A stretch of 46,722 bases of DNA, from contig CAYOPA010000002.1 in NCBI GenBank assembly GCA_964405625.1, positions 1 through 46,722 on the forward strand. Reading direction: 5' to 3'. The notes beneath the pieces are model-generated. The model saw only the letters and a list, made by a program, of their open reading frames with translations. It ran no database searches and was not told where the DNA came from. The position numbers and the translations under genes are program-made. This document shows positions 3,091-12,955 of the stretch, piece by piece; the first letter of the stretch is position 1; each line of letters begins with the position of its first letter. The DNA is from an uncultured Bryobacterales bacterium. GTDB lineage: Bacteria; Acidobacteriota; Terriglobia; Bryobacterales; UBA6623.

Positions 3091-5322
3091 TCAGTCCATC
3101 GACGCTGACGCCCGCTCCTGCTCGGTCATCGTGACCTTATGTGAGCTCAAGCTACTGATGTAGCTTTCGATGCCCTCAAACAGGTACTCAGCCACCTGCT
3201 GACGGTACTTCGAGCTCTGCAACAGCTTCTCGTCGGTCGGATTGCTCAAGAATCCGATCTCGGCCAGAATCGCCGGCATCTTCGCTCCGATCAGCACCAT
3301 CAGCGGGGCCTGCCGAACGCCGCGGTCCTTCAATCCCTTGGTTGTGGTTGACAACCCGTTGAAAAGCACGCCTTGCATCCGCTGGGCGAACTCACGCGAC
3401 TCGTCCACTTTCTCCTTCATGGCGATCTTGGAGAGCAGGTCCTGGAGCTCATGCACCGTCTTGCTCGCCGCCGCATTTTCGCGCGAGGCGACCTTGAGCG
3501 CCCACGGATCGGTCGTGAAGTTCAAGTAGTAGGTCTCCACGCCGCGCACCGCGTGGTTGGTGAACGAGTTGGCGTGGACGGAGATGAACAGGTCCGCGCC
3601 GGCCTTGTTCGCCAGCGCCGTCCGCGCGTTGAGGTCGACAAACTCGTCGCTGTCACGTGTGAGCAGCACCTCGGCCCCTAGCCGCGACTTGATCAGCTTG
3701 GCCAGCCGCTGCGACACGTCGAGCACCACGTCCTTTTCACGCAAGCCGCTGGGGCCGATGCTGCCGGTGTCATGCCCGCCGTGACCGGCGTCGATCACGA
3801 CCTTGCCAACCTTCAGACCGAGAGCGCGGGTCAGGCTTTGCGAACCCTTCGACGGCTCGTCGGCCGGCTTCGGGGGCGGAATGTCGCTGGGGGTGTGTAG
3901 CGCCCTCGGCGCCGGCGCAGCAGAAGTCGGCGGCGGCTCCAGCTTGGCCAGCGTCACCGGCGGTTCGGCGCCCGGAACCGACGCATCCGACGCAACCGCC
4001 GGCGCGACTTCGAGCGGCGCGGCCGAGCGGGATGGGGGATTTGTGGCCGTGCGCTTTTTCGGCGCATCAGCCTGCGGCTTGGGCGGCGGCGGCGCGGACT
4101 TTGAAAGGACGGCGGCGCGGACCTCAGGCGAGCCTTCGCCAGCGAGCGCGCGGAACGCCTCGGCGAAGCTTGGCGCCTGGGCAGCCACTCGGCCCGCCAT
4201 TTCAGTCGGGGCCGCGACTTCCTCGGTCAGCTCGTCGGCGGGCGCCGGCCGGCTCAGCTCGCGCTCCGCCGCCGCGACGATCGCCACCGGCTCGGGCTCG
4301 ATCTCCGGTTCGGCAGCCCGCGCCAACGTCTCGCGCTTCAGGGTCTTGGCCCGTAGCTCAATCACCAGCCGGGGCGGATTGCTCAGCCAGTCCACGTCGT
4401 AGATCACGTCGTCGTTGAGGTCGAACACCAGTCGCGCCTTATTGACGCGGTTCATCCCCACTCGCAGCCGGGCCACGGCGGGATCCCCAATCTCGTAGTT
4501 ACCGCCTCGGGCCAGATCGCCGTCCAGCTTGGCGGTAAACAGATCAAAGTAAAGACGCGCCGGACGCTGCAGGAACTCAAACCTGTACGGAGCGAAATCG
4601 TCGAGCTCCAGCGCGATGCGCGTGTACTCTTGCGTGCTCCAGTAGCGCAGATCCTTGATCGTGGCGTCGCCGGAGCGCAGCTTACGCGGCGACGGCGTGG
4701 CGCGGTTTTCCTGATTGCCCGGCCCCGCATTGCCTTGTGTCAGCGAAACCTGGCGCATTTGCGGCTCAGCGGAGACCGGTGCGGAGGAAGCCGTTTCAGC
4801 GGGGGCGGCGGCCTTTGCGACCACGGCCGCGGGCGGCGGCTCGGGCCGGCGTTCAGGCTCGACCGGGGCTTCCGGCTTGGGCCGGGCGGCCGGCGCGGCC
4901 TTCGTCAATGTCACCGGGGCGGCGGACTCAAGCTGCGCCAGCTCCTTGCGGGCTTGGCCGAGCAGCTTGCTGTGCGGGTATTCCCGAATCAGAAACCGAT
5001 ACCCTGCAACGGCCTCATTGCGGTAGCGATCCTCTCCAAAGCGGTCATACTTTTCACCGTAGAGTTGCGCCACGGCGAGCAGGGCGTCGTCGCTATAACC
5101 GCTGGCGGGGTGCAAGCGCGTAACGGCGTCGAAGGCCTCGATGACCAAGTCATACTGCTTCCGGCCGAGCTCCAGCCGAGGGACCGCGCGCAGATCCTCC
5201 AACAAGGTCCGCGCGTGTTGATATTGCCGGGCCGCCGTCGTCCGCCCATCGGCGGCGCCGATCGGCAACGTAAGGCAGGCCGCCAACATGGCCGCCGCGA
5301 TGATTCGCACGAGCTGTTTCAC
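3091..5322 (-). CDS. N-acetylmuramoyl-L-alanine amidase (Amidase_3) with signal peptide, TPR/YbgF-like region, AMIN-like domain and long Ala/Pro-rich linkers
   Basis: C-terminal VVIDAGHGGHDTG...DLFISVHANS...LAEIGFLSN amidase_3 signature. AMIN-like IKDLRYWSTQEYTRIALELD. N-terminal MKQLVRIIAAAMLAACLTLPIGA. Confidence 0.9.
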   Translation of the reverse strand: MKQLVRIIAAAMLAACLTLPIGAADGRTTAARQYQHARTLLEDLRAVPRLELGRKQYDLVIEAFDAVTRLHPASGYSDDALLAVAQLYGEKYDRFGEDRYRNEAVAGYRFLIREYPHSKLLGQARKELAQLESAAPVTLTKAAPAARPKPEAPVEPERRPEPPPAAVVAKAAAPAETASSAPVSAEPQMRQVSLTQGNAGPGNQENRATPSPRKLRSGDATIKDLRYWSTQEYTRIALELDDFAPYRFEFLQRPARLYFDLFTAKLDGDLARGGNYEIGDPAVARLRVGMNRVNKARLVFDLNDDVIYDVDWLSNPPRLVIELRAKTLKRETLARAAEPEIEPEPVAIVAAAERELSRPAPADELTEEVAAPTEMAGRVAAQAPSFAEAFRALAGEGSPEVRAAVLSKSAPPPPKPQADAPKKRTATNPPSRSAAPLEVAPAVASDASVPGAEPPVTLAKLEPPPTSAAPAPRALHTPSDIPPPKPADEPSKGSQSLTRALGLKVGKVVIDAGHGGHDTGSIGPSGLREKDVVLDVSQRLAKLIKSRLGAEVLLTRDSDEFVDLNARTALANKAGADLFISVHANSFTNHAVRGVETYYLNFTTDPWALKVASRENAAASKTVHELQDLLSKIAMKEKVDESREFAQRMQGVLFNGLSTTTKGLKDRGVRQAPLMVLIGAKMPAILAEIGFLSNPTDEKLLQSSKYRQQVAEYLFEGIESYISSLSSHKVTMTEQERASASMD

Positions 5323-5363
5323 TGGAATCCCGCTACTCCCCCGGGCCTATGTCCCGATGGTTG

Positions 5364-6161
5364 TTACTCCGTGTCGAAGATCAACGCTCCATCCTCCCCC
5401 AGCGACGTCCGTACACGGGGTCTGGGCTTGGCGGACTCGGCGATCATCCGCGATCCGATTTTCGCCGTCGGACCATAAGCTCGGGTGATCCTGTCGACGT
5501 AATCGACGGTCTCGCGATACGGCGGTAGGCCGCCATATCTCTCCACCGCACCTTCGCCGGCGTTATACGCGGCCAAGGCCAGATCGAGATCACCTTCGTA
5601 ACGGTCCATCAGCTCACGGAGAAGCTTCGCTCCTCCAAGGACGTTTTCGGCGGGATCGAAAACATCCTGAACCCCCAGCCGCTTGGCCGTATCCGGCATC
5701 AACTGCATCAACCCTTGAGCTCCCTTGCGGGATACCGCCAGCGGGTTGAAGCCGCTCTCCTGCCGAATGACGGCCCGAATCAGCTCCGGGTCTACGTCAT
5801 GACGCCGCCCCGCCTCCCGCACCAAGCTTTCAAGCTCGACCCGTCCGGTCGAGCCGCCCTGGACGCCCTCCAGGCTTGGCGCGGATGCGGCAAGCTGCGC
5901 CGCCGGGACCTTGCGAACCCCCCGAGCTCCGCCGACTCGAATCAGCCGGCCGGTCTTGGGGTCCTCGCGAATCCCATACTGCCTCACTGCCACGGAAACC
6001 GCTTCCGCTTCGCGCTTCGGGCTCTCGATGGTCCTCGGGACCACGGCAAAACCTTCCGCGTTGACTTCCACGTTTCCCGCTCCAAGCGTCGCCGCCGTCA
6101 GCAGCAACGCCGTCGCGGGAAATTTCCGCACAGTATTCTTCCAGAAGATATCACACGACAT
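5364..6161 (-). CDS. Lytic transglycosylase (SLT domain), exported
   Basis: [25 protein letters not shown]...AYNAGEGAV. Start placed at the internal ATG at 6161 ([29 protein letters not shown], signal-like). The upstream ~250 codons of the 517-aa ORF are Arg/Ala-rich antisense shadow. Confidence 0.85.
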
Positions 6162-6275
6162 CGGGTTGGGCAAATGTTTTCCGTAGCCGCGTGTTCCGGC
6201 ACATACACCAGTAGACGCGAAGGGGATCGAAAAAGTCGATTCGCGTCCGTGCTTTTGCGGGCGCCGGGGTGCGCT

Positions 6276-7178
6276 ATGCTGGCGGTCGTCATGAAAAGGA
6301 CCGCCTTGTCGTCGGCTGTAGCGGCCTGCCTGCTCCTGGGGGCTTGCGCCTCGGACGACTCGGCGCCAGAGGAGAACCCCGCCGCCATGCTGGACGCCGT
6401 TACGCTGTACGCGTCGTTCGACCGAAGCGTGGCGGCCGATTTCGCGCGCGGCCCTGGACAGTTGCGCACGCGCTACGGAGCGCTGAGCAACCCGGAGGCG
6501 TTTCGCTTTGAAGACGGCTATCCGCGCGACGTCTTCCGCGTCGCTGAGGGCGCGGGCGTCAGCGGAGGCGCGCTGGAGGCGCTCGACGTGCTGCCCGAGA
6601 ACGGTCGCATCTTCTACCCGGCCCAGGGCAATCTGGCTTTCGACCGCGGCGGCTGGAGCGGAACCGTCTCGTTCTGGATCAAGACCAACCCGGACACAAT
6701 GCTGAAAACTTCGTTCTGCGACCCGATCCAGATCACCCAAAAAGGCGCCAACAACGGCGGGCTGTGGATTGATTTTCCCGACTCGTCGCCCCGCGACCTG
6801 AGACTTGGGGCCTTTCAAGCCGAGGGCGACGGCCGCCCGCGCCTGAGCGAGTCCGATCCCGACGCGCCGCTTGTCGTTGTCAGCCCGATCGGTTTTCAGG
6901 AAACCGACTGGCATCACATCCTGTTCACGTGGACTGATTTCGACTCCGACGCCGAGAATGCGCAGGCGACGCTGTACATCGACGGGTCGCCGCGTGGCTC
7001 CTTCGGCGGACGCAACATCACCATGGACTGGGATATCTCGCAGACGGGGATTTACGTGGCGGTGGGGTATATCGGGCTGCTCGACGAGCTGGCCATTTTT
7101 GACCGCGCGCTCAACGCCGCGGAGATCGCGCGGCTGGCCGCAGAGCCGGAGGCATTAACGGGGCTGGCGTCGGAGTAG
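6276..7178 (+). CDS. Lipoprotein with LamG/concanavalin-A-like lectin domain
   Basis: Lipobox in [20 protein letters not shown]-terminal [21 protein letters not shown] is typical of Laminin_G_3 domains. Start is ATG 6276 or 6291; the upstream part of ORF 5715..7178 is antisense to the SLT gene. Confidence 0.75.
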
Positions 7179-7212: not shown

Positions 7213-7839
7213 TTAGCTCTGTTTGCGCCGGCGCAGCCACAGCAGGCCGAAAGCTCCGCTGCCCAACAAGAGGAACGTGCTCGGCTCTGGAATGGGGTTT
7301 GTGTCCGTCGTTGACCAGAACGAAATGTGACTGACGGTCGGCTGCTGGCCGCCGTTGTTGAGGATGCCCTCGGTGGAGTACGCTCCCGTGCTCGCACCAG
7401 GCGAGAACTCGTACAGCGCAAACGAATTAGCCGCCTTGATGGTGATGTAGCGGACCGTACCCAACCCGGATGTCTGAGTCCAGGTACCGGCGAACGACGA
7501 CACCAAATCAATGCCGCTGCTCGGGGTGTAGGTGAATGGCGCGCCTTCGTCGCTCTGGCCCAGAGCGATCAGGTTGACACTGACGCCGGTGGCGCCCAAA
7601 ATCGCCGCCTCGACGGCCGATAGGGGATCGCCGCCTCCGGCGTTCGAAAAGATGCCGTCTCCGCCGCCCGGATAGCCCGGCGCCGTGCCAGAGATACATC
7701 CCTGGTTGATCAGGTCGATTCCCGGTCCATCCTTGCAGAAAAGGACCGGGCTGGCTTCGACCGTGCTAACCGCGGGTCCAAAACCCGCGCCCAGAATGGC
7801 AACTAGCAAAGATAAGAACAGTGGTCGGGAACAATGCAC
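7213..7839 (-). CDS. PEP-CTERM sorting-domain secreted protein
   Basis: C-terminus PIPEPSTFLLLGSGAFGLLWLRRRKQS (PEP motif + TM helix + basic tail). N-terminal signal peptide. GTG start with AAGGAG 7 nt upstream. Confidence 0.85.
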   Translation of the reverse strand: MHCSRPLFLSLLVAILGAGFGPAVSTVEASPVLFCKDGPGIDLINQGCISGTAPGYPGGGDGIFSNAGGGDPLSAVEAAILGATGVSVNLIALGQSDEGAPFTYTPSSGIDLVSSFAGTWTQTSGLGTVRYITIKAANSFALYEFSPGASTGAYSTEGILNNGGQQPTVSHISFWSTTDTNPIPEPSTFLLLGSGAFGLLWLRRRKQS

Positions 7840-8095
7840 GCTTTGACTCCTTCTTGGTTATGAGGCTTCACACATGGCTGCTTACGCACGCGATTCGTAA
7901 GGCCTTCACCCTACTTTAATATGGGGGGGAATCCTTAGGTGCAAATCCACGATGGATCTGTGCTAAAACTCACATCGAAGAACGGGCGGGGGCCGTCCTT
8001 GCAGGACAGAAACGCTGAGGTTAAGTGCTGGCGAGCGAGACGATTGCCTTGAAATTCGCGGCGGTATAGTCCTGAAACAAATTAGATATGCCTTC

Positions 8096-8122
8096 AAAAA
8101 GGCCGGGCGCATAGGCCCGGCC
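8096..8122 (-). terminator. Rho-independent terminator of the peroxiredoxin gene
   Basis: Minus strand GGCCGGGC-CUAUGC-GCCCGGCC followed by UUUUU (plus-strand A-run 8096-8100), about 40 nt after the stop at 8163. Confidence 0.7.
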
Positions 8123-8162
8123 TCGGATACGTCGCTGGTCCGTCAGACCCGGCGGCGGAGTG

Positions 8163-8675
8163 TTACTTCAATCGGCTGCAGGCGCTCAGCGCCCCGTCGA
8201 TGGAGATGGCGTCGCCGCCGGAGATGACCTCCTGGACGACCCCCTGTTTGTCGATGACGAACGTCGTGCGGTCCGCCATGCCGCGTTCATTGAGCACACC
8301 GAAGGCCTCGGCAGCCTTCTTTCCCGCATCGGAGAGGAGAGTGAACTCGAGGTTGAGGGATTCAGCAAACTTCTTTTGCGTCTCGAGGTCGTCGGTGCTG
8401 ATGCCGAAGATGACCGTTTCGGCGTCGGAAAATTTTGCGATACCAGACTGGTACGCGTTCATTTCGCGCGTTCAACCACCGGTGAACGCTTTCGGGTAAA
8501 AGGCCGCCACCACGTTCTTTTTGCCGCGGTAGGCGGAGAGGGTCTCGGTTTTCCCGTTGCTGCCGGGAAGCGCGAAATCAGGGGCTTGGTCGCCGACCTT
8601 GACCGCCGCGGCGGCGCTGGAAGCGGCGCCGAGGGAGCCAAGGGCGAACAACGCCAGTCTACGACTCATTCTCAT
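8163..8675 (-). CDS. Secreted Bcp/PrxQ-type peroxiredoxin with in-frame UGA (candidate selenocysteine) at the peroxidatic-Cys position
   Basis: ORFs 8472..8681 and 8163..8462 share one frame, separated only by TGA (8474-8472) + ACG CGC GAA. Joined product: ...[28 protein letters not shown]..., matching the Prx FxxGCTxE active site. Signal peptide [30 protein letters not shown] lies 9 nt upstream of ATG 8675 (TTG 8681 and ATG 8669 are alternatives). Confidence 0.75.
8437..8456 (-). promoter_or_regulatory. SECIS-like hairpin downstream of the in-frame UGA
   Basis: mRNA GCGUACC-AGUCU-GGUA(U)CGC: 7-bp stem, one bulged U, 5-nt apical loop containing GU. The loop starts 23 nt after the UGA. It resembles the E. 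coli fdhF SECIS apex (GGUCU loop, bulged U) in shape and spacing. Confidence 0.55.
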
Positions 8676-8882
8676 GGGCAATCTCTCCTTTCGATCTCAC
8701 TTGGTGCGCCACCAAGGGCGCGCGTTCTGATTTTTGCACGACCGGCGCCTCGGTGCGAAACCGAGCCCTGGGCCGCCGCCGCTCCCGGTCGCCTAACGGA
8801 ATCGCCACTGACGCTGGGAATTCTTGATATCCCCTGGATTGGGGTTCCGTTTGGACCGATCGTGTGGTTAACATTGTGGTCC

Positions 8883-11800
8883 ATGAGGTATTTGACGGCG
8901 CCCCTACTGCTTGCCTTCGCCGCGCTCCTGCCGGCGCAAAACGATTTCGGCTCACTACGCACCCAAGCTCTGCAAATGACAGCCGGTTCCAACCCGCTGT
9001 TCATGGCCGGAACGACGGAGGGTCTGTTTGTCAGCCGCGACGAGATGCAGTCCTGGCGACCGGTCGCGCTAAGTCCCGACCTGACCCGGCCACAGCCCGG
9101 AATCACCCAGATTGACCGCGACCCGTTCAGCTCAAGCGTCTTCTATGCCGCCGGTTCCGAGCGCACCAGCACGGTCAGCGTGACGCTTAACCAGCGCCCG
9201 GAGATCTACCGCAGCGACGACGCCGGCGAGACCTGGAACCGCAAGACCTCCGGCCTGCCGGAGGACGCCACGCTTCGTGCGATCCACGTGATGCAGAACG
9301 CACAGGGCGTGTTGTACGCCTATCTGCACGTCAACGACGAGCGACGCGTCTACCGATCGGCCAATCGCGGCGACTCGTGGACCCTGTTTCGGACGCTGCC
9401 CTCCGGAGCCGGTCCTCTCCTGATTCACCCGCGCAACCCCAACCTGTGGTACTACAACACCGGACGGGCCGTCTTTAAGAGCGTCAACGCGGGCGAAAGC
9501 TGGGCCAGCGCCGGGCCGTTCCCGCTTCGCTCGACCGGCGGCGGCATTGAGAACAGCATCACCTCGACCATTCTGGATCCGAACAACGAGAACATTCTTG
9601 TGATGTGTACAAGCGGTCCGAGCTTCGGCAACGACGAGGTGAACAACGGCATTTTCTTCAGCAACACGCAAGGCGCTTCCTGGCAACGCAAGACCACCAC
9701 CATTGCGCAGCAATTGTACTTGTCCGAGGGCCTGCTGCTGATCCATCAGGTCGAGGGCCGCAACTTGTGGATCAGCACCGACAGCGGCCGCAGCCTGCAG
9801 CAGCCGGTTCGGATGTCGGGCGGTTCCAGACGCGCCGACGGCTTTCTAATTGATAGGCGGGAGTCCGATACGATCTACTCCGGCCTGGAGCTGAGTCAGG
9901 ATCGCGGACGCAATTGGGTGGCGCGCGAAGCCGCGGTCACGCCCTTCTTTGGCCCGGACGTCCCGTCGATTGAGACCTCCGGCTCGACCAACGACCAGGC
10001 GCCTCGCATTCTGACCACTCGCGTCATCGCCCGAGGCGCCGGGGCTTGGGCCTTGCCCTTCACCGTCGAGAGCTCAGCCTCGTGGCTCACCACGACTTCA
10101 GCTTCCGGCACGACGCCGGCTTCGATTTCGGTCCGCATCAACGCCGGCGGCGTGCCTGTCGGCATGCACGAGGCGACGTTGACCTTCCGTTCCACCGAAG
10201 CCGCGAACTCCGAGGTCGCCCTGCCCGTTCGGCTGACCGTTACGGCCGAACCGGCCGCTGACCCATCCCCCACAATCTTGACCTTCGCCCTGGACGGCAG
10301 TTTCAGCGACGCCGGAGACGGGGGGCCGGCGACCGCGGCTTCGATGCAAGGCCCGACGTTCATGGTCTTCAACGCCGAGGGCGGGCTCTACATCAGCGAC
10401 CAGTTCGCCGACAAGGTGCGCTACATCAACCCCGCGGGCGTCATCTCTACCTTTGCCGGCACGGGCGTGGGCGAGTTTGGCGGCGACGGCGGTCCGGCCG
10501 TACAGGCCCGTATTGACAGCCCGCGCGGATTGTCAGTCGGACCGATGGGCCAGGTCTATATCGCTGACGGCTTCAACCGGCGCGTGCGACTTGTGGGACC
10601 GGACGGACGCATCTCCACCGTCGCCGGAACGGGCGAATTGGGCTCGAATGCGGCGACCGGACGGGCGGCTGACTTGAACATCAGCCCGAATGACATCATC
10701 GCCACGCCGGACGGCGGCTACTACATGACCGGCTCGGGAACATATCGCGTCAATCCGGACGGCTCCTACATCCGCTGGAGCTTGACGAGCTACACCGCGC
10801 TGGCGCTTGGCCCCAACGGACGGCTGTACGGTCTGACTTCCAACCGCGTCTCCGAACTGCGGCCCAACAACTTCACGCAGCCGTACGCGGGGACGGGCTC
10901 GACCGGCTTCAGCGGCGACGGCGGCCCGGCCCTGGAGGCGCAGTTGAGCGGCGCCACGGATATGATCTTTGACCGCGAAGGCCGGCTGTTCATCGCCGAC
11001 AGCGGCAACCACGTCGTCCGCATGGTGGACCGTAACGGCGTCATCAGCACGTACGCCGGAACCGGCGTAAGCGGCGACTCCGGCGACGGCGGCCCGGCCA
11101 ACCTCGCGCAGTTGCGAAATCCGCGGGGTGTGATCGTCGGCCCCGACGACAGGCTTTATATCTCCGGCGGCGGGAGGATTCGTGTCGTGCTGGCGCCCGG
11201 CGAGGCTGCTCCGGGACCGGTGTTGAGCAGCGCGGGCGTGGTCAGCGCGGCGTCGTTTACTAACTCCGTGGTGGCGCCCGACCAGATTGTCTCCATCTTC
11301 GGCTCGAACCTCAGCTCAGAGGTTGCCGAGGCGACCCAGACGCCGCTGCCGGAGACGTTGGCCGGGACTCGCTCCGAGCTGATCGACGCCTCCGGGGCGA
11401 CGCACCGGCTGTCCTTCGTCTTCGTGTCGCCAGGTCAGATCAACGCCGTGGTTCCCGGGGGAGTGGCGGCTGGGGCGGCGCGACTACGCGTCATCAGCGC
11501 CGCCGGCCAGGCGGGCGAGACGACGATCCAGGTGGCCGCCGTGGCGCCGGGTCTTTTCTCGGTGGATGCCAGAGGCCAGGGCTTAGCGGCGGCGGCCGCG
11601 GTACGCGTAGCCTCCGATGGAGCTCAAACCCCAGTCGACGTCCTGTCACCCGCAAACCCGCTGGCGGCGGCCCCGATCAACCTGGGGCCGGACGGCGATT
11701 TGGTCGTCCTGCTGCTCTTCGGGACAGGCATGCGCAACTTTTCCAGCGAAATCAAAGTTACGATCGGCGGCCTGCCGGCCACGATCGTTGGCTTCGGCCC

Positions 11801-11933
11801 CTCGACGGAGTTCGTGGGCCTGGATCAGCTCAACGCGGTCATCCCGCGCGACCTCGCCGGTCGCGGCGAAGTCGATGTGAACGTGGAGGTGGACGGCCAA
11901 GCGGCAAACACGGTGACCATCACCGTGCAATGA
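8883..11933 (+). CDS. Large secreted protein: BNR/Asp-box beta-propeller + NHL repeats + Solibacter-type (TIGR03437-like) C-terminal domain
   Basis: Start at ATG 8883 (MRYLTAPLLLAFAALLPAQ signal). Asp-boxes SDDAGETW, SANRGDSW, SVNAGESW, SNTQGASW, SQDRGRNW. Repeated NHL units (GTGxxGxxGDGGPAxxAxLxxPxG...ADxxNxxVR). C-terminus SAASF...IVSIFGSNL...FVSPGQINAVVP...APGLF...GLDQLNAVIP...TITVQ. Confidence 0.85.
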   Translation: MRYLTAPLLLAFAALLPAQNDFGSLRTQALQMTAGSNPLFMAGTTEGLFVSRDEMQSWRPVALSPDLTRPQPGITQIDRDPFSSSVFYAAGSERTSTVSVTLNQRPEIYRSDDAGETWNRKTSGLPEDATLRAIHVMQNAQGVLYAYLHVNDERRVYRSANRGDSWTLFRTLPSGAGPLLIHPRNPNLWYYNTGRAVFKSVNAGESWASAGPFPLRSTGGGIENSITSTILDPNNENILVMCTSGPSFGNDEVNNGIFFSNTQGASWQRKTTTIAQQLYLSEGLLLIHQVEGRNLWISTDSGRSLQQPVRMSGGSRRADGFLIDRRESDTIYSGLELSQDRGRNWVAREAAVTPFFGPDVPSIETSGSTNDQAPRILTTRVIARGAGAWALPFTVESSASWLTTTSASGTTPASISVRINAGGVPVGMHEATLTFRSTEAANSEVALPVRLTVTAEPAADPSPTILTFALDGSFSDAGDGGPATAASMQGPTFMVFNAEGGLYISDQFADKVRYINPAGVISTFAGTGVGEFGGDGGPAVQARIDSPRGLSVGPMGQVYIADGFNRRVRLVGPDGRISTVAGTGELGSNAATGRAADLNISPNDIIATPDGGYYMTGSGTYRVNPDGSYIRWSLTSYTALALGPNGRLYGLTSNRVSELRPNNFTQPYAGTGSTGFSGDGGPALEAQLSGATDMIFDREGRLFIADSGNHVVRMVDRNGVISTYAGTGVSGDSGDGGPANLAQLRNPRGVIVGPDDRLYISGGGRIRVVLAPGEAAPGPVLSSAGVVSAASFTNSVVAPDQIVSIFGSNLSSEVAEATQTPLPETLAGTRSELIDASGATHRLSFVFVSPGQINAVVPGGVAAGAARLRVISAAGQAGETTIQVAAVAPGLFSVDARGQGLAAAAAVRVASDGAQTPVDVLSPANPLAAAPINLGPDGDLVVLLLFGTGMRNFSSEIKVTIGGLPATIVGFGPSTEFVGLDQLNAVIPRDLAGRGEVDVNVEVDGQAANTVTITVQ

Positions 11934-11977: not shown

Positions 11978-12955
11978 CTACACCCGGAAGTAGGGCTTTA
12001 GCGCCTCCAAATTCCAGTCGATCTCCGCCATTTGCGCGGCGTTCCAGGTGTAGTCGCCGCGCCGGCTGATGGCCGTCTTGAAGATCCCCCGCTTGCGAAA
12101 GACGTAGTTGCGTACGCCCGGGATCTGCTGGTCCAGGTTGACCAGCAGCAGCAGCTTCGAGAAAACCTCCCGCATCTTCTTGCGGTCGTCCTTCTGGTGC
12201 AGCTCCCACAGCAGGGCGTAGACCTCGGCGAACATCGCGCCCGGCATCGTGCCGTCAAAACCCAGCCGCATTTCGTACATCCAGCCCTTGCCCGCCGCAC
12301 CGGAAAAGACGCTCTTGATCGGGTTCGGCCGGTGGGCCGCCATCTCCGTCAGGCGCTCGATCACCGGCTGCGCCTCCTCTTTCACATACCCGAAGTTCGG
12401 ATACTTCTCCGCCAGTTCCACGATTAGCTCGACTGACGGAACCAGCCCCTTGGCGCCGCCCGTGGTCTGGATAAAGACCGGCCGCTTGGCCACCTGTCAC
12501 AGCACCGAGTAGTAGGCCTTGTAGTCCGCCATCGAATCGGCCTCGCTGGGCGGCATCGAGATCAAGGCGTCCGGCCCGAGCTTTTCGGCGTGGCGGGCGT
12601 ATTCGAGCATCTTGTCCAGCGTCGGCGCCTGTACGCCCAACACCAGCGCCGGCTTCTTGCCCTTTGCCGCCTTGGCCATCACCTCCATGCCCTGCATCCG
12701 CTCGTCCTGGGTCAGTTGGGTGAATTCGCTGGCCGATTGCGGCCACACGATGCCCTGAACGCCGGATTTGTGGAGGAACTCAACCTCGCCGGCCAAGTCT
12801 TCAAAGTCAACCGGCTTGCCCGGTGCGTCCTTGTACGGGGTGGCGGCGATGATAAAGGCGCCTCGCATCGGTTTTTCCGCGGCGCGAAGGGAACGAACGG
12901 CCAGCGGCGAAGCGGCCAGGGCTGCGAGGAGCTGGCGGCGGCTGAAATGAGGCAT
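11978..12955 (-). pseudogene. Tat-exported DHDPS/N-acetylneuraminate-lyase-family (class I aldolase) gene interrupted by a single in-frame TGA
   Basis: ORFs 12497..12955 and 11978..12493 are in the same frame. Junction reads ...ADYKAYYSVL-TGA(12499-12497)-QVAKRPVFIQTTGG. Tat motif SRRQLL at the N-terminus. Both halves look fully coding. Confidence 0.55.

Follow-up and report, generated by a model that had tools for sequence, protein, structure and literature searches.

Two short open reading frames (ORFs) on the minus strand of a contig from an uncultured Bryobacterales bacterium (Acidobacteriota; GenBank assembly GCA_964405625.1, contig CAYOPA010000002.1) raise the question of whether they are two genes, one broken gene, or a single gene in which an internal UGA codon is read as an amino acid. 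The whole stretch of 46,722 nucleotides was analysed and is hereafter called the window. A first-pass annotation had read the pair as one secreted peroxiredoxin, with UGA as a candidate selenocysteine (Sec) codon at the position of the catalytic Cys, followed by a hairpin resembling a selenocysteine insertion sequence (SECIS). We conclude that the interval 8163-8675 (minus strand) is very probably a single, functional and monocistronic Bcp/PrxQ-like (AhpE-like) peroxiredoxin gene, whose predicted peroxidatic residue is Sec. Every testable sequence-level prediction of the first-pass annotation held.

The two minus-strand ORFs, 8472..8681 and 8163..8462, share one frame, with nothing between them but TGA (8474-8472) and three sense codons, ACG CGC GAA (8471-8463), as had been read earlier. 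The joined coding sequence comprises 170 codons, running from ATG at 8675-8673 to TAA at 8165-8163, with the UGA as codon 68. The start codon is the ATG at 8675 and not the TTG at 8681; the orthologue in L001 starts with MRMTRR, and the window protein with MRMSRR. A putative Shine-Dalgarno-like AAGGAG is located 9 nt upstream of the ATG (8685-8690, minus strand). Pfam AhpC-TSA (PF00578) spans the UGA, covering residues 27-149 across the stop (E 1.1e-36, profile positions 1-123 of 124). A total of 128 peroxiredoxin chains in the PDB were matched, and the stop aligns on their peroxidatic Cys (FTQVCTKEM of 2ywn). The active-site motif P61-K-A-F-T65-G-G-U68, followed by TREM, corresponds to the PxxxTxxU signature of Sec-peroxiredoxins. 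A Cys occupied the UGA column in 11/11 full-length homologues aligned, and the placement of the UGA at the catalytic Cys position was thereby confirmed in homologues and PDB chains alike. The best PDB matches were Sulfolobus Bcp1 (3drn, 1e-25) and Mycobacterium tuberculosis AhpE (about 5e-21). The best NCBIfam family was the Bcp/PrxQ equivalog NF006960 (PRK09437), at 90.8 bits against a cutoff of 140, and no NCBIfam equivalog cutoff was reached; on these profile scores, the protein is classed as Bcp/AhpE-like and not as an equivalog of E. coli Bcp.

The UGA is conserved among the relatives. Among the best 120 database matches, 36 were C-terminal fragments of 98-101 aa with 71-100 % identity, corresponding precisely to the sequence downstream of the UGA. 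The full-length homologues among these 120 matches all carried Cys and reached at most 65 % identity, and no relative above 65 % identity carried a sense codon at the UGA position. Because their back-translated pattern demanded a Cys codon, scans with a Cys-substituted protein failed to pick up most of the close Sec-type relatives; these were recovered via the split-fragment proteins. At the DNA level, 11 distinct relatives were compared, with about 70-94 % protein identity, different genomic neighbourhoods, different samples (soil, stromatolite and other metagenomes), and long- and short-read assemblies that included long-read chromosomes. The same codon was TGA in 11/11, and never TAA, TAG, a sense codon or a frameshift. 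All 11 kept the same 9-nt spacing from the UGA to the Met codon and showed no other disruption. Within the source stromatolite metagenome, three assemblies carried TGA as well: the window, L071, and L070, whose sequence has 31 mismatches and a 60-bp indel against the window. Purifying selection is equal on both halves of the gene, with pairwise ratios of nonsynonymous to synonymous change (dN/dS) of 0.19 upstream of the UGA (43 codons) and 0.16 downstream of it (96 codons); the proportion of synonymous differences (pS) is about 0.55. The dN/dS of 0.16 after the UGA indicates that the downstream part is translated in the same frame. Purifying selection on both sides, together with TGA in all 11 relatives, upholds the earlier claim of one gene against that of separate or decayed halves.

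At 8437-8456 on the minus strand, the transcript can form a bacterial SECIS (bSECIS)-like hairpin, GCG-UACC(A) / GUC / (U)GGUA-U-CGC, with 7-8 bp, a bulged U, the loop A-G-U-C-U and a dG of -8.7 kcal/mol. The base of the stem is 16 nt downstream of the UGA, leaving 15 nt between them, and the apical loop lies 22-23 nt after the UGA. The position, stem and bulged U given in the first-pass annotation were reproduced, whereas its distance of 22 nt applies to the apical loop and not to the base. The published bSECIS consensus (PMC13188914 Fig. 2) calls for an upper stem of 4-16 bp capped by an apical loop of 3-9 nt, with a G among the first two positions of the loop, as N1-G-(G or U)-N-N2 with N1 and N2 paired; a loop located 16-37 nt from the UGA; and a minimum free energy (MFE) of at most -7.5 kcal/mol. 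The window hairpin has the loop GUC (or AGUCU) on 8 bp, and relatives have 7-9 bp. The loop reads A-G-U-C-U in the window and A-G-G-G-U or A-G-G-C-U in relatives, with an invariant A·U closure. The spacing is 22-23 nt, and 21-26 nt in other TGA clades. The MFE is -8.7 kcal/mol in the window; clade members span -7.0 to -11.1, and L072, at -7.0, is marginal. The hairpin noted earlier thus agrees with 4/4 published characteristics, is conserved with a compensatory change, and is predicted to act as a SECIS.

The significance of the hairpin comes only from comparative data. Synonymous-codon entropy was lowest in the gene in 14-codon windows over the UGA and the hairpin (0.40-0.48 vs 0.88-0.94 elsewhere), and the stem codons Ala GCG, Tyr TAC, Gln CAG and Ile ATC showed no synonymous variation. 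In an alignment of 10 sequences, the hairpin was 99 % paired, compared with 25-43 % when the 3' partners were slid. The pair 23-33 changed from A-U to U-A in L072 and L077, where Tyr TAC became Phe TTC, and the partner change from GGT to GGA, seen only alongside that replacement, was synonymous. The pairing score of the alignment was reached by 15/500 shuffles. Judged from these sequences, the covariation is limited yet coherent. A local composition shuffle of the window hairpin gave z -2.7. A downstream hairpin was absent from the Cys-codon sisters of the more distant TGA-type clades (L003, L037, L039 and L043) and from a Cys paralogue that lies in tandem with the Sec-type gene in L081. Median dG was -9.6 in TGA-type and -5.2 in Cys-type sequences, and median z was -1.9 and 0.0, respectively (Mann-Whitney p ~4e-5, no phylogeny correction). 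The element may extend over 8430-8465 (minus strand), with GAA(10-12)/UUC(43-45) pairing as a lower helix beneath the hairpin. This candidate stem extension, suggested earlier as GAAA/UUUC, was pairable in 10/10 sequences (100 %), but it showed only one-sided changes, within conserved Glu and Phe codons.

At least two further, more distant sub-clades of the secreted peroxiredoxin family were observed with TGA at the peroxidatic codon. One, with the motif WFPKAFTGG*TAEC (asterisk, TGA), occurs in Vicinamibacteria-like metagenome-assembled genomes (MAGs) (L002:3127, L041:2142, L044:1568 and L052:1497); the other is represented by L034:516 and L035:104. These clades have different hairpins at the same offset, 21-26 nt downstream, with the loop CGUGA, or CAAGC/CCACUA. 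In L081, the Cys-type paralogue (5186-5704; 64 % identical, TGC) is located directly upstream of the Sec-type gene (5788-6303) in the same orientation, and P0007 and P0068, on one 2370-bp NCBI contig, form another tandem Cys/Sec pair. Such tandem pairs could reflect selenium-dependent isoenzyme use.

Several results weigh against decoding of the UGA as Sec or against parts of that reading. Taken as a single sequence, the hairpin is ordinary, with z of -0.74 and +0.27 in dinucleotide shuffles of its 50- and 81-nt contexts. Rfam, at gathering and permissive thresholds, returned no SECIS family; its only matches were a miRNA model, hit by chance, and the terminator portion of SorX. Covariation is limited to one pair in two sequences, and the remaining support for the hairpin is conservation, which is partly due to the conserved active-site peptide. 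The hairpins of L034 and L035 carry no G in the first two loop positions, and that clade therefore departs from the consensus. Pfam analysis of 30 ORFs found no selA, selB or selD in the 46.7-kb window, and ARAGORN found no tRNA-Sec in the window and 23 fetched loci. None of the 120 listed SelA matches could be assigned to a contig that carries a Sec-peroxiredoxin. For export, the window leader gave no match to the twin-arginine translocation (Tat) signal model TIGR01409 (cutoff 16.7 bits), and three relatives scored 8-12.6 bits.

The search for sel genes covered the window and the fetched flanks, and support for Sec machinery is at the level of the lineage. The gene content of the window includes LepA, an Nqr operon and cell-wall enzymes, and the named homologues of the window genes belong to Bryobacterales or Acidobacteriota. 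Solibacter usitatus is a Sec decoder, for which SelA/SelB and Sec-FdhA sequences have been given (Zhang et al. 2006, PMC1794560). When S. usitatus SelA was used as a query, soil metagenomes yielded more than 120 clusters with 72-100 % identity, some of them from Bryobacteraceae MAGs. The acidobacterial isolate Occallatibacter riparius is a Sec user according to deep-Sep. We infer that Sec would be inserted at UGA68 and that selABCD would be present in the same genome.

A second gene with an in-frame TGA was found in the same window by a scan for TGA-interrupted frames. This gene of the dihydrodipicolinate synthase (DHDPS) family, at 11978-12955 (minus strand), has its own RR-type leader and one in-frame TGA at 12499-12497. 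The TGA column is Cys in 8/9 close homologues and TGC in the closest genome, L087, and all 120 best homologues are intact and full length. The TGA was found in two assemblies of the population, the window and the variant L070. No consensus SECIS was found; the only nearby hairpin, GGUCU-UUAUCC-AGACC, has its loop 22 nt from the UGA and lacks the loop G. A second selenoprotein is unsupported here, given a TGA private to the population, 120 intact homologues and no consensus SECIS. This TGA is probably a recent nonsense mutation or marks a pseudogene; a very young change from Cys to Sec is a less likely alternative.

The alternatives to a Sec codon in the peroxiredoxin gene were weighed against these data. 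A pseudogene, or a TGC or TGT turned into TGA by faulty sequencing or assembly, would require only one third-position change, and the TGA at a Cys column of the DHDPS-family gene on the same contig, private to its population, could be just such a mutation. The peroxiredoxin TGA, by comparison, recurs in 11 distinct relatives as well as across three assemblies of the source sample; the gene has no further stops or frameshifts, its downstream dN/dS is 0.16, and a sense codon at the TGA position is absent from all close relatives above 65 % identity. Conservation and selection effectively refute decay and error, to which we assign a negligible probability. A real stop at the UGA is also very improbable. 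It would yield an exported N-terminal piece of 67 aa and a piece of 99 aa restarted at AUG 8462, acting separately or reassembled as a split peroxiredoxin, and it would suit both the two ORFs predicted by gene callers and the AUG that follows the stop by 9 nt in all relatives. That AUG, however, encodes the conserved Met of the CTREM active-site motif, which is also present in the Cys forms, and it has no Shine-Dalgarno sequence at a usable distance. The catalytic residue would be in neither piece, the first stopping one position short of it, and the second would also be without the signal peptide. The split into two polypeptides was rejected since the catalytic residue would be lost and both the exclusive use of TGA and the conserved hairpin would be left unexplained.

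Translation of the UGA as something other than Sec is improbable, at a somewhat higher level than the two foregoing explanations. The UGA could be decoded, site-specifically or leakily, as Cys by an opal-decoding tRNA(Cys) that resembles tRNA(Sec) and works with a SelB-like factor, as Ser or another residue by an acidobacterial allo-tRNA suppressor, or as Trp or Cys by near-cognate read-through. Such tRNAs are on record: selC* tRNA(Cys) with a UCA anticodon adjoins selB-like genes, and acidobacterial allo-tRNAs may be nonsense suppressors (PMC5389517). Sequence alone does not tell Sec from Cys at a SelB-type site, and the private TGA at a Cys column of the DHDPS-family gene, 4 kb away, also fits such decoding. 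On the other hand, selC* has been reported from Firmicutes, Thermodesulfobacteria, Nitrospirae and Proteobacteria, not from Acidobacteria (PMC5389517), and a canonical SelA is present in the Bryobacterales-type lineage. With Cys as the outcome, the long retention of TGA and hairpin would be pointless given the TGC sisters, which sometimes stand in tandem. TGA terminates 11/24 Pfam-supported ORFs in the window and is the most frequent true stop there; general suppression is therefore unlikely, and the recoding appears to be local and site-specific rather than a change of the code. Genome-wide reassignment of UGA was rejected accordingly, the standard code being in use elsewhere in the window.

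Under the preferred reading, that of a seleno-peroxiredoxin, a ribosome would reach UGA68 while SelB·GTP·Sec-tRNA(Sec) binds the hairpin 16 nt downstream (loop A-G-U-C-U, 22-23 nt). SelB would deliver Sec in place of termination by release factor 2, and translation would run on to the TAA at 8163. The product would be exported, most probably to the periplasm, by means of a 24-residue leader that carries a conserved twin arginine. In that compartment, the U68 selenolate, seated in the PxxxTxxU pocket together with the conserved Arg136, would reduce peroxides, and the resulting selenenic acid would probably be resolved by the invariant C-terminal Cys166.

The leader (residues 1-24; 8604-8675, minus strand) is a putative export signal, possibly of the twin-arginine type; RR stands in its n-region, a hydrophobic stretch forms its core, and it ends in AxA. 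Cytoplasmic peroxiredoxin structures align only from residue 25, and residues 1-24 show the n/h/c layout of a signal peptide; both observations support the signal peptide seen in the first pass. The RR pair is invariant in all Sec-type sequences examined and in the nearest Cys sisters, and it is absent from more distant secreted homologues. By these comparisons, export is well supported as a prediction, and the RR pair suggests the Tat route. The Cys166 codon (TGC, 8178-8180, minus strand) lies in the C-terminal motif GA..ACSRL, is invariant in 17/17 Sec and Cys forms, and also aligns with a Cys of the Sec-peroxiredoxin of Anaeromyxobacter dehalogenans; Cys166 is thus a candidate resolving residue. 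As with that role, we infer the export route, which may be the Tat or the general secretory pathway.

The gene would form its own transcription unit. A predicted intrinsic terminator at 8096-8124 (minus strand), a 10-bp GC-rich hairpin (8124-8099, dG -22.5, z -2.4) followed by a U run, lies downstream of the TAA stop, and the terminator part of the Rfam SorX model matches the same place. This terminator was missed by a simple terminator scanner and was confirmed by folding. The upstream neighbour is transcribed divergently, and, together with the terminator after the stop, this indicates a monocistronic unit. The surroundings consist of genes for secreted or surface proteins, including a PEP-CTERM-anchored protein (7213-7839, minus strand), a 1016-aa NHL/sortilin-repeat protein with an acidobacterial-type C-terminal domain (8883-11933, plus strand) and a Laminin_G_3 protein (5715-7178, plus strand). 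Synteny with PEP-CTERM, SLT and amidase genes was found only in the closest relatives (L082 and L087), which argues against a conserved operon partner or a dedicated reductase. In L076, a 271-aa fusion of AhpC-TSA and DsbD_N (1544-2359) is located 3.4 kb upstream of the Sec-peroxiredoxin gene, beside a sigma-70/NrsF anti-sigma pair. This fusion could hint at a periplasmic reducing pathway and is absent from the other loci. Compared with L070, which is otherwise 99.7-99.9 % identical, the window carries about 60 additional bp (7929-7984) in the spacer that separates the terminator from the PEP-CTERM gene, an indel or a small duplication between strain variants or assemblers.

Sec-peroxiredoxins as such have precedents. 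The peroxiredoxin selenoprotein family (PF00578, TxxU) had 12 members with 5 inferred Cys-to-Sec events in a 2006 survey (Zhang et al. 2006, PMC1794560). The Bcp-like A. dehalogenans protein Prx_2 (PMC1794560, supplementary file 4) is 42 % identical to the window protein over the whole mature domain (144 aa, E 2e-42). Both share KAFTxGUTRE, GISTD..ETQ.KF, LLSD, an aligned C-terminal Cys and Sec at the peroxidatic position, and both were predicted from a Cys/Sec pair and a bSECIS. They differ in phylum (Acidobacteriota vs Myxococcota) and in the active site (FTGGU in the window clade vs FTPGU), and the catalogued A. dehalogenans sequence starts at GD. No FTGGU-type peroxiredoxin was found among the entries of the acidobacterium S. 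usitatus in the 2006 catalogue (PMC1794560). The first-pass annotation was right that the family is known; its example, PrxU of Eubacterium (Peptoclostridium) acidaminophilum, is not the nearest Sec-peroxiredoxin on record, given the 42 % identity of Prx_2. The experimentally supported PrxU shares the AhpC/TSA fold, Sec in place of the peroxidatic Cys and a hairpin after the UGA. It belongs to another subfamily (AhpC/typical 2-Cys-like, cytoplasmic, NF040737 profile of ~233 aa), in which the window protein scored 57.9 bits against a cutoff of 270 and is not an orthologue; identity to an Alkaliphilus peroxiredoxin of the PrxU general type was 27 %. PrxU is not known to have a signal peptide.

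The hairpin shares with the E. coli fdhF SECIS and the consensus bSECIS an ORF-internal position 3' of the UGA, a small loop with G then U or G, a bulged U and a spacing within 16-37 nt. The window loop CAGUCUG resembles CAGGUCUG of fdhF, and the bulged U is on the 3' strand in the window and on the 5' strand in fdhF. The window loop is also ~4 nt further from the UGA than that of fdhF, and no Rfam model matches the hairpin. The closest Cys-type counterparts are secreted Bcp-like peroxiredoxins of Acidobacteriota (e.g. P0001, P0003 and P0007; deposited as 'peroxiredoxin Q/BCP' or 'redoxin domain-containing protein'), at 64-65 % identity. They have the same length, RR leader, FTGG-C-T[KR]EM site and ACSRL C-terminus, but a TGC catalytic codon and no downstream hairpin.

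Export of a selenoprotein, which the first-pass annotation had pointed out, is not new. The Tat-exported catalytic subunits of formate dehydrogenases N and O (periplasmic FdnG) are selenoproteins with an export signal, and exported bacterial selenoproteins also include a substrate-binding SaoB and a multiheme cytochrome c. These share with the window protein an N-terminal export signal and extracytoplasmic action, whereas their folds and chemistry are unrelated to it. Formate dehydrogenases need Tat because of their cofactors, and the peroxiredoxin has none. Thus, Sec-peroxiredoxins and exported bacterial selenoproteins are already known, and what is new here is the phylum, how abundant the clade is in metagenomes, the presence of an explicit leader and the fact that mis-annotation is systematic.

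As the first-pass annotation had foreseen, standard gene callers split the gene, and two ORFs were called in all relatives fetched. The gene and dozens of its relatives are deposited as two truncated 'redoxin' ORFs (e.g. MBI1353751.1); consequently, the selenoproteomes of Acidobacteriota MAGs are under-counted and the catalytic residue is missing from databases. Joining the two ORFs corrects the annotation. A broader and decidedly tentative proposal is that these genes may represent a large unrecognised clade of Tat-exported periplasmic seleno-peroxiredoxins of largely aerobic soil and mat Acidobacteriota, with a C-terminal resolving Cys and sometimes a tandem Cys paralogue. Such a clade might defend against peroxide outside the cytoplasm in a selenium-dependent way and alternate between Sec and Cys isoenzymes according to how much selenium is available; its Sec form may have emerged, or persisted, in several sub-clades, with a separate SECIS in each. 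Knowledge of Sec decoding itself is unchanged. The Sec-peroxiredoxin family, described so far mostly from anaerobes and the cytoplasm, would gain an abundant soil phylum and an extracytoplasmic location. The natural pairs of Sec and Cys paralogues, together with three different SECIS solutions in one family, would provide material on why and when Sec replaces Cys.

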